A stretch of DNA of 64,000 nucleotides from Spirochaetia bacterium (GTDB lineage Bacteria > Spirochaetota > Spirochaetia > DSM-16054 > Sediminispirochaetaceae): the NCBI GenBank assembly GCA_034520965.1, contig JAXHMY010000002.1, forward strand, positions 64,001-128,000, given 5' to 3'. Numbering within the stretch: position 1 is the stretch's first letter; each line of letters starts with the position of its first letter. The position numbers and the translations under genes were made by a program. The notes below the pieces were generated by a model. It saw only the letters and a list, made by a program, of their open reading frames with translations, did not search any database and was not told where the DNA came from. Shown piece by piece: positions 3,791 through 8,281 of this stretch.

Positions 3791-4581
3791 GTACCCCTTC
3801 TTTTTTCAAAAAGTTGTTTGGAATCTCAGGGCAGCAAAGCGATACTCAAGGCGATGACTACGATAGTCTAAATTTTGAAGAACAGGATATGATTCGAGGG
3901 GTAGTAACCCTTTCAGATACTACAGTGAAAGAGGTGATTGTCCCACGTATAGATGTCGAGTTCGTAGCAATTGAATCAACCTTTAACGAGCTGATTGATA
4001 CCCTGGGCGAGGGGGGCTACTCAAGGTTTCCCGTATACAAAGACACAATTGATAATGTGGTTGGTATCCTTTATGTAAAGGATCTGCTGAAACAGGTGAA
4101 GAGCCAGGAAGATTTCAGTGTCGAAAAAATAATTAGACGCCCCTATTTTGTACCGGAAAGTAAGCGCCTTGATTCTCTGCTGCGTGAGTTTAAACGGAGA
4201 AAGGTTCATATTGCCGTGGCAGTAGACGAGTATGGCGGGGTGTCGGGCATTGTGTGCTTAGAAGACATCATTGAAGAGATAGTGGGTGACATACAGGATG
4301 AGTTTGACAACGAAGTGGAAGACATTCTAGAGATCGGAGAGGGAACGTATTTGTGTGATGCCAGAGTTGATATCGAAGATCTAAATGAAAAACTCAGCCT
4401 AATGCTTCCGGAGGAAGATTTTGATACCTTGGGAGGCTTTGTCTTCGACATGTTTGGAAAAATTCCCGTGAAGTACGAAAAAGTTAAATACAGTGGTATC
4501 GATTTTATCATTCAGGAAATGGATGGGCATAAAATAAAAACTGTAAAATTAGTACTTAAGGATAGCAACAGTGCCGCATAG
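3787..4581 (+). CDS. corC: CBS-pair/CorC_HlyC protein (CorC/YbeX, 'hemolysin' family)
   Basis: YSRFPV, VDEYGGVSGIVCLEDIIEEIVGDIQDEFD, DTLGGFV; follows ybeY. Confidence 0.85.
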   Translation: MSTPSFFKKLFGISGQQSDTQGDDYDSLNFEEQDMIRGVVTLSDTTVKEVIVPRIDVEFVAIESTFNELIDTLGEGGYSRFPVYKDTIDNVVGILYVKDLLKQVKSQEDFSVEKIIRRPYFVPESKRLDSLLREFKRRKVHIAVAVDEYGGVSGIVCLEDIIEEIVGDIQDEFDNEVEDILEIGEGTYLCDARVDIEDLNEKLSLMLPEEDFDTLGGFVFDMFGKIPVKYEKVKYSGIDFIIQEMDGHKIKTVKLVLKDSNSAA

Positions 4582-6603
4582 ATGCGGAAAAAAAAGAAAG
4601 ATAGGGAGTGCTCTGAGTCTCTTAATCCTTAGTTGGATATTGTTAGTGTCGGCTGTGAATCCGGCGGTTGACCTGTATCAGCAGGGTGAAGAACGGCTTC
4701 AATCCGGCGATGTGTACGGGGCAATTGATCTTTTCAAAGAATCTCTTTCTTATAATGCGGATTATGTTGATCCGTTATACGGCCTGGGACAAGCTTATTT
4801 TAAATTGGAAGAATATGAGCAGGCCCTTGTGTATATCCAGCAAGCACGAAGGTTTGACAGAAACAATACCAGCATCACCGCACTTGAAGGAAGAATTAAT
4901 ACCGGTCTGGGAAAGTATTCGGAAGCGGAGAGAATTTTTGATAAAATTCTTGAAAAAGAGCCCCACAATCTTGATGCCCAATTTGGAATGGCCGAGCTGC
5001 AAGCCGCGATGGGGAGCGTCGAAAATGCGATCGCCGGGTATCGAAAGGCCTTGGAATCGGATCCATACAACCGCCGCGGTTTGTTATCTGCAGCGCTCTT
5101 GTACAGCGCCCAGAACAACCTTCAGGAGGCTGCCGAGCTAATACAAACGGCAGTCGACAGCTATCCGGAGGATCCTCGGGTGCACTCTATTGCCGCTGAG
5201 TACTACTTTAAAAGGGATAATCCCCGTAAAGCTGAAGAGCATGCCCGTCAAGCACTTCAATTGTATTCAGAATCTGAAGATGCAATATACGTGCTTATAC
5301 GAATTCTGTTCGCACAAAACAGATTCGCCGATGCCATAGAAGCGGTAGAAAAAAATATAAATATAGATCGCGATAAGCCGCTTTTATGGTACCTACGGGC
5401 AAAGGCGTATTGGAAAACCGGAGATCAGCAACGGGCTTTGGAGAGCTTTTATACCGCCTTAAGCCTTAAACCAAGTGATGAAATTACAAGAATCGCTCTA
5501 GAAGAGTTTCTTATGGACCGTTTTGCAGGGGATTCCCAAGAGAGAAAAAAGGCCGCTGATATAAGGTTTGAGTACGGTGCTTCCTACGAACGGGATAACC
5601 GAATTGAACTTGCCCGACAAGAATACCGTCGGGGCCTGATGCTTCACCCCTACAGCCGTGAAGGACGGCAAATGTATGCGGCCACCTTCAAACGGTCCGA
5701 TAACATTGGGAAATACCTTTCTATTTTGAAAGTACTTGAGACCGAGGGAAACACAAGCCAAGAGATACAAGATGAAATTGAGATTTACACAAGCTTACGC
5801 GAAGAGAGTATTGCCCAATCGTGGGATGTCGATCAGTTTGCCATAGATCGCTATCGCTATAAGATAGCACTTTTTACCAATAATAATCAGTCCCAGGTAA
5901 TTCATCTAAAGGCGGAAGAATATTTAACAAGTTACATGCAGGGAATACTCCAGGGCAATGAACATCTTGATATCGTAGATACCGGTTCCGTTGAATCCTT
6001 TGCTGAGGCCTTTAGAAGGGCACGAGAAACAGATATCGATTATTTTATAGTTACTACTTATCGAGAGGGTGAAAGGGCCTTCAAAGGCTCTGCAACAGTG
6101 TATAACGGGTCTACCGGAACCGTTATAAAAACTTTTAATAGTTTGCGCACTGGAAATAGACGAGTCAGTCAAGCTCTCATACGAATCGCCGGGACATTCT
6201 CTGATAGCTTACCACTGCGGGGCAGGATTTACCGAAGACAAAATAACACGGTTTTACTTGATGTAGGGATTTCCAAGGAGTTTCTCCTGACGACCGGTTT
6301 AATGTCATTCGCGGAGAAATTTTAGAGCTTGCGGATAACCAATTTGCCTTAGAGTACAATCAGCGTTATATTCTAGGTTACATAGAGATAAGCAATGTAG
6401 ATGATCTTCTTTCTGTGGGCCAAGTGAGCACAGATCAATTTTTCGATTTAATAAATCCCGGGGATGCGGTGATTCCAGTTAACAGCATCAGCGAAGAAGC
6501 AGGGGCTGAGGGAAATGCAGGGGCTGCCCAAGAGGGTACTGATCTTCGTGAATCTCCCGTAATTCCCTCGGAGATCTATAAATCGCTGCTCGAGGTTGAG
6601 TGA
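4571..6603 (+). CDS. Exported TPR-repeat protein, split by a one-base frameshift near 6273
   Basis: Signal-like N-terminus and many TPRs; adding one C at ttcc(c)aagga (about 6273) gives a continuous frame (…GVSPDDRFNVIRGE…) to TGA 6601-6603. Confidence 0.75.
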
Positions 6604-6679
6604 TTCAGCTATTCTGATATGTTGTGACCCTTGTCAAGTATTCTATAGTAAAAGTTTATAGTACCCCCTTCTTTATAAG

Positions 6680-6890
6680 ACCGAGAGGAGAAAAAGATAG
6701 AGGAATACATGCAACCGTCGATGTACAGACTGATATTCGCGGATTGGTTACCTGCAGTGCAATGTAATCGTCGGGAGCTTGCCTCTGTCTCAATTCAAGG
6801 ATTCCTCCTACCAAAAAGAGGGCCTTCAGAATAGCTCGAGGATTCTCCTTCGCTTCTTCTCGTATTCCTCTATCCATTCTACCCCTCGGT
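6680..6890 (-). ncRNA. Candidate bridge/seek RNA in the 3' non-coding end of the IS
   Basis: Closed by a perfect 13-bp stem (6696-6708/6862-6874); two internal-loop modules with segments matching the target flanks (6828-6836, 6789-6796) and the donor end (6730-6736); exact RNA ends unknown. Confidence 0.7.
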
Positions 6891-6910
6891 TTCAAAACTC
6901 AGTTAAACCT

Positions 6911-8008
6911 CTACGTTGTTTGTTCTCTCATTATTCCCCAAATAAAACCGCAAAGCTCACGTGCAACTGCCGTAGCAACCTTCTGTGAAGGTTTTCCTGT
7001 AAACAGAAGGTGCTGATATCGCCGCGAAAGTCTTTTCCCTGCTTTATCGGCATACGCTCTTGCCTGAGGATCTACTTCTCGTCTTCGTTTTATCAGTCGC
7101 TTTGAGGAGGGATCATAGGTGCGACAATGCCAGGCACTTTCTACCAACAGGCGCCTCAAACGCTTTATTTCCTGATTTTGTAATACCGTTCTGACGACGA
7201 CGTTCTCCACTGGAGTGTTCAGCCGGTACCAAACCAAGATAACTCATGAACTGCGAGGGCTTGGCAAATCGCCGAAAATCACTTATTTCGGCAATGATTG
7301 ATAACGCGGTAAAGGTTCCAATCCCCTTAATGGCCATCAGCCTTTTCACTTTTCCCTATAGCGCCCTTCAGAGGCAAGGGCTTCAATGCGCTGGTCGATT
7401 CGTTTAATATTTTCAGTGATGTAGTCCAGATGCCCCAGGTACTCCTTTACAGTCTCTTTCTGCAATGAGTTGAGCTCTGCGATGGCTTTCTTAATCCACA
7501 GTCGGTGTTTTCCTGTCCAGATTATCCCCATCACGGTAGATCAGACCATGACGAAGCAGAAGACTGAGAATTTTTCTGCTTGTAGCGTCTCTGCTCGTCT
7601 TTGTAATCATCCCTGACGTGCAGAAACTCACGCACCGCCTCATCGGCTCTGGTGGGAATGTGAACCCCTGTCAACTGTCCGGAACGCAAATTACGGGCAA
7701 GCATGTCGGCGTCCCGTTTGTCGGTTTTTATTCGCTCTGATGGTTTTTTTGGAATCAGTCCCGGGGCTGCAACAAGACAGGCAATGCCCATACCTTCGAG
7801 CATCCGATAGGTACTGTAACCGCTTGGCCCTGCTTCATAGCAGCACAAAGCTCACCCTTTTCCTGGAGCTTCTTAAATATTTGCGCAGCTCGCTTTCCCT
7901 GTTTTTCTTCTGAACGACTATCGATGGGACCTGTTCGCCATTCTTATACCCGACGATGAATACCGTCTCCTTGTGGACATCCATTCCTACATAAATTACA
8001 CTGTTCAT
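6911..8008 (-). pseudogene. IS110-family transposase/recombinase, broken by about 6 single-base indels as assembled
   Basis: ATG 8008 after AGGAGG; MNSVIYVGMDVHKE…CCYEAGPSG…IKTDKRDA (DEDD), GIG…IIAEISDFRRF…YLGLVPAEHSSG (catalytic Ser), RRLLVESAW, VATAVAREL; most breaks fall in A/T runs. Confidence 0.9.
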
Positions 8009-8106
8009 AGTGGCCTCCTGTTTGTATGTGGCGTGTTTGCCATTGTGTTTTTACCATTTTGCAGGCTAATCCACGATTTTGCAAACACGGGGGTCACTTC
8101 ATATTG

Positions 8107-8150
8107 TCTCATTTTGGATAGTGTAATTACACTATCCAAAATGAGAATGC
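8107..8150. repeat. REP-like palindrome family A, copy interrupted by the IS (left arm begins at 6608)
   Basis: TCTCATTTTGGATAGTGTAA|TTACACTATCCAAAATGAGA, perfect 40-bp palindrome (8107-8146). Confidence 0.85.
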
Positions 8151-8192
8151 CTCCACACGTTGAGATATATAAAAATTTGCAAAGAAATTGAT

Positions 8193-8239
8193 GCGAATTC
8201 TAAATTTGGAAGTCAAAAGACTTCCAAATTTAGAATCGC
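8193..8239. repeat. REP-like palindrome family A
   Basis: GCGAATTCTAAATTTGGAAGTC-AAAA-GACTTCCAAATTTAGAATCGC, 18-bp perfect stem. Confidence 0.8.
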
Positions 8240-8252
8240 TGTGAGTGATTTA

Positions 8253-8281
8253 TTGACATATATTTCCCTATATCATATAGT
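8253..8281 (+). promoter_or_regulatory. sigma70 promoter of gap-pgk-tpiA
   Basis: TTGACA (8253-8258), 17 bp, TATAGT (8276-8281); RBS AGGAGG before ATG 8320. Confidence 0.7.

Follow-up and report, generated by a model that had tools for sequence, protein, structure and literature searches.

Several described mobile elements resemble the one reported here. The bridge RNA of IS621 has two loops, a CT core and a left guide followed by a right guide (PMC11208160, PMC11208158), with handshake bases after the right target guide (PMC11208158). In PMC11208160 a predicted bridge RNA is drawn for six elements, ISCARN28 among them. The elements encoding the seekRNAs of ISEc11, ISKpn4 and ISPa11 have a downstream non-coding region and 12-bp repeats with 7/3-bp extensions; their guides are ordered with the complement of the top strand before the match to the bottom strand, and natural retargeting is seen between relatives (PMC11187229). 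In Coxiella, 20 of 21 IS1111 copies sit in QMITE2, a MITE of 150-190 bp with variable 7-11-bp direct repeats, at 10-20 bp inwards from its end (PMC5896051). ISPpu9, an IS110-family element with an AG crossover, has its bridge RNA in a structured leader in which the ribosome-binding site is buried; an antisense RNA, Asr9, lies over this leader and is complementary to the bridge RNA region and to Ssr9. Antisense RNAs complementary to the bridge RNA region are known in both ISPpu9 and ISPpu10 (PMC8450116, PMC12288879).

The locus described here shares with IS621 the two loops, the core, the guide order and the place of the handshake bases, with the seekRNA elements every trait listed above, and with ISPpu9 the crossover and, as a prediction, the leader and its antisense RNA. 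The guide RNA element is one more member of a known system. Its target also has precedent, MITE targeting of this kind being known from Coxiella IS1111 and QMITE2 (PMC5896051). Unlike IS621, our element carries its RNA 3' of the gene, reads its target opposite to the gene and has long inverted repeats; the IS621 protein is distant (E 1.9e-08 over about 100 aa). The recombinase is 365 aa long, as compared to the 330-350 aa stated for the IS1111 group, and about 26% identical to that of IS4321, and its RNA has, unlike the IS1111-family seekRNAs in the accessible part of PMC11187229, two full modules with end-matching guides. In contrast to Coxiella IS1111, the host is another one, the pairing of guide with MITE can be followed at single-base level, and only two of the three copies lie in a MITE; QMITE2 and our MITE are likened by description.

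The window, that is, the whole stretch of 64,000 nucleotides analysed (positions 64,001 to 128,000 of contig JAXHMY010000002.1 of a Spirochaetia bacterium), contains the following gene.

6911..8008, minus strand: gene of an IS110-family DEDD recombinase, with PF01548 and PF02371 matched on its pieces and six single-base indels in this assembly

The Pfam match of PF01548 to the pieces of the window gene reached 28.8 bits (cutoff 29). The source genome contains three copies of the element, on contigs C2 (the window), C3 and C9, and one 155-bp fragment. The C3 copy has an uninterrupted frame of 365 aa that passes NF033542 (252.6 bits, cutoff 140), with the N-terminal DEDD domain PF01548 and the C-terminal PF02371 with its S-G motif that mark the IS110 family; D10, E59, D100 and S267-G268 are invariant across 36 homologs. 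The six indels of the window copy fall at other places than those of the C9 copy. All six are missing from a short-read contig over 6800-7993 (depth 12.2, as compared to 4 in the flank), and contigs of a second sequencing run are likewise free of them. Since the short-read contigs lack them, the six frameshifts are most likely assembly errors; the first short-read run may be the window's own source, and serves here as an assembly check and not as an independent population. A dead pseudogene was rejected in view of the intact C3 copy and the indel-free contigs, and the repaired transposase that the preliminary description had called for is most likely unnecessary.

Some observations concern the surroundings of these copies. 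The orphan 155-bp piece (G000:C2:545716-545869) spans window positions 6795-6949 and holds the last codons of the gene and most of the target module, broken at the right guide; it could be a relic or an assembly chimera. The C3 copy (L001 748-2049) breaks the 3' end of a 433-aa reading frame, whose stop is now inside the element. Upstream of the window copy, a TPR gene (4571-6603) is split near 6325, probably by one more assembly indel.

The ends of the element were defined by comparing the genomic copies, the C9 junction being error-rich.

6614..6615, plus strand: core dinucleotide CT (AG in element orientation) at the element 3' end; boundary common to the three genomic copies
8108..8109, plus strand: core dinucleotide CT at the element 5' end; boundary shared by the genomic copies
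6619..6630, minus strand: right sub-terminal inverted repeat, 3 bp from the end, 10/12 complementary to 8091-8102
8091..8102, minus strand: left sub-terminal inverted repeat, 7 bp from the end counting AG, pairing with 6619-6630
6632..6637, minus strand: TTGACA, predicted -35 box of a circle-junction promoter; TTGAC lies at most 35 nt from the right core in 45/57 elements

The AG/CT core read in the preliminary description is thus found at both boundaries, and AG is also the most frequent core across relatives when end calling permits any core. As expected of the IS110 family, a short core stands at both boundaries with no true target duplication, and taking the element out restores an intact MITE end. 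The 12-bp repeats with their 7/3 spacing and the long downstream non-coding region (295 nt, as compared to 101 nt upstream of the gene) are traits of the IS1111 group; with the AG core and the 3' guide RNA they bear out the earlier assignment to the IS1111 type. The best named protein relative is ISEc45 (44% identity), whose locus has ends of the same pattern and a guide that matches the end over 7 nt, and the domain rows of ISEc45 and ISCARN28 in the accessible part of the PMC11208160 supplement show, by eye, the same motifs; guides and target differ. Feature set and pairwise identity place the element as an IS1111-type member of the deep ISCARN28/ISEc45 clade. A close relative is present in a Spirochaetales record, which agrees, as does the gene order, with the spirochaetal origin proposed earlier, and a wider search of 16 family genomes returned only a full element in G006, a partial one in G014 and two short marginal matches. 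The promoter role of TTGACA is a prediction; the site is missing from the promoters listed for the linear window, and no circle junction is listed among the run contigs, which drop rare forms. Five copies in genome G286 (L023, L029, L032, L034, L036) have AG at the left boundary and AA at the right; they apparently sit in short palindromic repeats, and their guide likewise reads U there.

The site into which the element is inserted turned out to be the end of a MITE.

6597..6605, plus strand: 9-bp target-site duplication of the MITE, left copy, identical to 8242-8250 and overlapping the upstream stop codon
6606..6613, plus strand: left 8 bp of the MITE terminal repeat, equal to the left half of the target; the same 8 bases open uninterrupted MITE copies
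8110..8241, plus strand: remainder of the ~142-bp MITE, containing two long palindromes; the bases with which it opens form the target's right half
8242..8250, plus strand: 9-bp target-site duplication, right copy, identical to the left one

The MITE is made up here of 6606-6613 plus 8108-8241. The repeat in the right flank has 72 loci in the genome by BLAST, and 38 copies were confirmed by both ends and a duplication, which is 9 bp long in 35; a duplication is borne by 38 of 44 end pairs. In length, 37 copies measure 136-144 bp and one 175 bp. A short, multi-copy sequence with terminal inverted repeats, a variable target duplication and no transposase is a MITE, and this structure rules out a lone palindrome or a terminator as the target. 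The preliminary description had the site and the core right; the MITE family whose terminal repeat is targeted had escaped it. No autonomous partner of the MITE was found within 6 kb spans in the source genome, which is 86% complete. MITE matches occur in 7/9 same-genus genomes and in 2/7 other genomes of the family.

Minimal palindromes of 18-21 bp, consisting of the MITE terminal repeats only, also occur (G000:C1:911664-911681 and C1:1023927), the first flanked by identical 9-bp repeats. At the window site, the final stop codon of the upstream TPR gene falls inside the target-site duplication of the MITE. A near-consensus promoter (11/12) at 8253-8281 starts 2 bp past the right duplication and is therefore spared by the insertions; the genes downstream of it are gap-pgk-tpi-secG-like. 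In contigs of two other runs (X3, X18), 6606 is joined to 8243 with three bases between, and IS and MITE are both absent. This empty site keeps both duplication copies nearly whole and resembles the footprint of an imprecise MITE loss.

The non-coding region 3' of the gene contains the predicted guide RNA.

6680..6890, minus strand: predicted bridge/seek RNA, with a long outer stem of 6680-6709 with 6861-6890; fold z -4.27
6828..6836, minus strand: left target guide, 7 nt plus core, 9/9 to the site
6789..6795, minus strand: right target guide, core plus 5 nt; one mismatch here, perfect for CAATT-type MITE ends
6787..6788, minus strand: handshake bases after the right target guide, matching left-end bases +2 and +1
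6760..6763, minus strand: short partner donor guide, complementary to left-end bases +2..+5
6730..6736, minus strand: donor guide matching the element 3' end plus core, a 7-nt match

The 211-nt minus-strand RNA folds at -77.2 kcal/mol, and none of 200 shuffles was as good. The 13-bp outer stem proposed earlier (6696-6708/6862-6874) is exact and grows to about 30 pairs. The stems of the first module are reproduced by the minimum-energy fold of the target module alone (6848-6774), with a z of merely -0.75. In the fold of the whole RNA the guides are paired, and opening them costs 8.4 kcal/mol. An Rfam search of the region gave five matches, all far under the gathering score, with no family reaching threshold. 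The left target strand is identical to 6607-6615 at 9/9 positions and the donor strand is the reverse complement of 6614-6620 at 7/7, both as first described. On the minus strand 6836-6828, the complement of the top strand, precedes 6795-6789, the match to the bottom strand, which is the IS1111 order. The right strand had been read as 6796-6789 against 8108-8115; its mismatch (6793) and G.T pair (6796) are real, and the guide itself is 6795-6789, because G6796 aligns with the conserved hairpin-closing G of the relatives. It has a mismatch against each of the element's three own sites.

A match of nine bases arises in 20/20,000 shuffles and one of seven in 318/20,000. It might be argued that such matches are accidental, the 7-mer appearing in 1.6% of shuffles, or are relics of a duplicated flank in a dead, frameshifted element, as the indels of the window and C9 copies could suggest. 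The protein match gave 116 loci, of which 97 were left after dropping nine duplicates, fragments or error-rich own loci and the incomplete genes. End calling without a template solved 87/105 full-length loci, many plainly wrongly, so a clade end template (AG/ATG/CAT) was used; it made the ends callable from DNA alone in 65/97 loci, which gave 58 distinct RNAs. These relatives are not independent, though most share no more than 35-46% identity with the query. When core-anchored match lengths were compared with 10,000 permutations (n=58), none was as good for both target guides and the end-matching donor guide, and 3 were as good for the short donor guide. The end-matching donor guide has a 7-nt match in 57/58 cognate cases, as compared to 30.6% of swapped pairs.

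For the analysis by column, 57 elements, one per RNA and with L001 and L006 dropped, were aligned on the end-matching donor guide, which makes the donor-guide columns circular. Covariation with the flank was seen in five columns for one side (z 5.1-8.9) and in four for the other (z 4.4-10), those of the right guide being 6791-6794. The left guide matches at 6/7 or better in 43/57 elements, as compared to 1.5% of swapped pairs, with a register shift of two allowed; in the window it stands one base nearer the hairpin than in most relatives, a register found in 10 of the 43 clear cases. Handshake base 6788 equals left-end base +1 in 57/57 (34.4 expected) and 6787 equals base +2 in 38/57 (25.4 expected). 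The preliminary description had made its proposal depend on guides that covary with targets in related elements, and over these 57-58 elements they do. The loops covary with both target and donor DNA, as expected of a bridge or seek RNA, which the predicted RNA very probably is. Such covariation over diverse elements, the intact C3 copy and the indel-free short-read contigs make an accidental or relic origin of the matches highly improbable.

Part of the fold is also visible in the relatives. The stem closing the target loop (6841-6838/6782-6785) is 97.5% paired in 30 elements, with compensatory changes, and the donor hairpin (6756-6751/6738-6742), with compensatory changes and 100% paired in the same number, is the best-conserved helix. 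A hand-drawn full structure on alignment A2 was just 61% paired, helices 1, 3 and 4 of its five being unconfirmed (62, 40 and 33%); a slide of -2 equalled its covariation score, and by eye the row of our element is off by one there. Among relatives, L006 (G006:C32, 70-75% protein identity) has an RNA from which the target module is missing altogether, apparently through a deletion between two short repeats. L004 (1201-1870) is internally deleted, keeps both ends and has lost the guide RNA, possibly as a non-autonomous form. A contig of run X3 joins 6802 to 7968, that is, the donor-module region to the first codons of the gene, which suggests a mini-element with ends and donor loop only.

How much of the RNA works as a guide deserves a separate consideration. 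The partner donor guide, placed earlier at about 6756-6765 with a weak match, is indeed weak. Four columns (6763-6760) covary with left-end bases +2..+5 (z 3.1-4.8), so that a full guide of 9-10 nt is unsupported and about 4 nt are left. A donor-loop handshake, as known in IS621, gave no signal in the 57 elements (20/57, 14.7 expected). The short partner guide, and a donor module that folded alone is no better than shuffles (z 0.64), would fit a seekRNA in which the target module of about 75 nt is the sole working guide, the ends being read mainly by the protein at the inverted repeats, and in which the second module is part of a precursor; indeed, for ISEc11 a short RNA of 82 nt was enough and surpassed the long form in efficiency (PMC11187229). 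However, the 7-nt donor guide follows the element end in nearly all relatives, changed ends included, and the donor hairpin is the helix best kept. We therefore regard a sole guide in the target module as unlikely, and give the precursor role of the second module an equally low standing.

Turning to the target, the copies on C2 and C9 (the latter with its error-rich junction) occupy the guide-matching type of MITE end, which makes up 5/89 free palindromic MITE ends. The C3 copy lies at a non-MITE site that yet retains 12 contiguous target bases. L004 and L006 are in MITE-type end sequences, L006 in a one-palindrome MITE, and have lost the guide region wholly or partly. Contigs of three other runs show a single change at 6833, in the left guide, which would fit both target guides perfectly to the other end of the MITE (7 such ends). 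Related populations may by this single-base change have been retargeted to the other MITE end.

Taken by analogy with IS621 and ISEc11, the element very probably is an RNA-guided recombinase aimed at the end of a MITE, and it would be programmable, as the preliminary description had it. In RNA runs X17 and X18, small shares of related variants only were seen, in contigs that cover parts of related elements without strand or ends; they gave no sign of expression or of habitat. As in IS621 and ISEc11, the element would excise as a circle whose joined ends form a promoter, and the guide RNA would bind the recombinase. Positions 6836-6828 and 6795-6789 would pair with opposite target strands around CT, 6736-6730 and 6763-6760 would hold the circle junction, and, once exchange has taken place, the donor strand would pass to 6788-6787. 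An abundant MITE as target, intergenic at this site, would offer many landing sites at low cost.

The left end of the element carries a second module, on the opposite strand.

7974..8002, plus strand: predicted antisense (outward) sigma-70 promoter TGGACA-17-TACACT, inside the first codons and pointing over the start codon
8009..8098, plus strand: predicted antisense RNA hairpin over the ribosome-binding site and the 5' leader

The promoter is weak on its own, the scan giving 3 sites where 3.3 are expected. TAnnnT is equally frequent at spacers 12, 19 and 17. Across the clade (34 representatives below 65% identity), synonymous codon choice is biased at both boxes. The codon that forms the start of the -10 box ends in TA in 15/18 usable cases, where 3.8 are expected (z 7.1; the 80 control columns reach 4.6 at most). 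For the -35 box, which a valine codon forms, the choice is GTC in 21/34 (9.5 expected, z 4.7). A-rich codons are common near gene starts, which could inflate the -10 figure but not the -35 figure. In L066, L072, L083 and L110 the antisense -10 box is, by eye, two bases further out and preceded by TG, like an extended -10.

The region 8009-8098 folds better on the antisense strand (-37.9 kcal/mol, z -5.14) than on the mRNA strand (-25.5, z -2.37), and the hairpin arms 8024-8031 and 8068-8075 copy the motif of the donor-loop hairpin. In 53/57 elements the leader motif is the reverse complement of that hairpin. Both strands of whole elements were scanned with a matrix built from the donor hairpin arms, each element being left out in turn. 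The antisense left end, only 3.4% of the scanned sequence, ranked in the top three in 47/57 elements and in the top two in 42/57, as compared to a top-three rank in only 11 for the target loop, and in the window's element it outscores the element's own donor loop. The folding energy of the whole left end is better on the antisense strand in 26/56 elements raw and in 41/56 after composition correction. An antisense hairpin acting as a third guide loop was rejected, because with its 5' arm it could not accommodate a guide. As a sequence feature, the antisense module seen across the clade is well supported, and an antisense RNA is probably made from the left end. Unlike Asr9 of ISPpu9, this predicted RNA shares polarity and motif with the guide RNA hairpin at the element's other end; the accessible part of PMC11208160 does not mention such a module for ISCARN28 or ISEc45.

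The same match can be read on the mRNA strand. The 5' leader might pair with the donor-loop hairpin in cis or in trans and couple translation to the guide RNA, with no antisense RNA needed. In the 53 elements leader and donor hairpin pair at 7.5/8 positions on average, cognate duplexes are stronger than swapped ones (-21.4 vs. -19.4 kcal/mol, 0/10,000), and the strongest local duplex here reaches -22.9, but the swap test is confounded by G+C content and the co-fold of full leader and full RNA brings no gain (-103.4 either way). In the 40/56 left ends where a looser search found both arms, G.U pairs favour the antisense strand by 64 to 12, or 28 to 12 without an invariant pair, the arms having been chosen by consensus with a possible bias; the strict motif pattern fits only 23/56, with unclear strand preference. 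At one variable position A.C mismatches (7) exceed G.U pairs (4), and leader pairing leaves the codon bias at the promoter unaccounted for. All this makes pairing through the leader rather doubtful.

A promoter concealed in the coding sequence near the first catalytic aspartate would give rise to a further RNA, antisense to the 5' leader. The leader itself is predicted to bury the ribosome-binding site. The left inverted repeat is also complementary to this region (cognate -15.1 vs. swapped -9.9 kcal/mol, n=40), and the predicted accessibility of the site is 0.19 with the repeat and 0.51 without it (n=46). The outward promoter would add an antisense hairpin of about 90 nt restraining transposase output. 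Bound by the recombinase, this guide-less copy of the hairpin would titrate the enzyme and silence its own mRNA. That the recombinase does bind it as a decoy is a tentative suggestion, somewhat short of probable. The chain as a whole (antisense RNA, mimic of the loop-flanking hairpin without guides, decoy or feedback sensor, target guide shifted to the other MITE end) is put forward with similar reserve. No precedent for an antisense mimic of a guide RNA was found in the literature searched, which consisted largely of openly accessible papers.

The guide RNA adds another readable and probably intact member to a family that is mined for genome editing, from a clade whose identity to the tested IS1111 and IS621 proteins in our comparison is at most 26%. 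Of greater importance than the guide RNA itself is the predicted antisense module. For the restraint of bridge recombinases in their hosts, a mimic of the enzyme's RNA handle that lacks guides would, if true, amount to a new control principle. Such a mimic would in addition delimit the minimal RNA motif recognised by the enzyme, and engineers who keep the native left end and first codons may then be suppressing activity.
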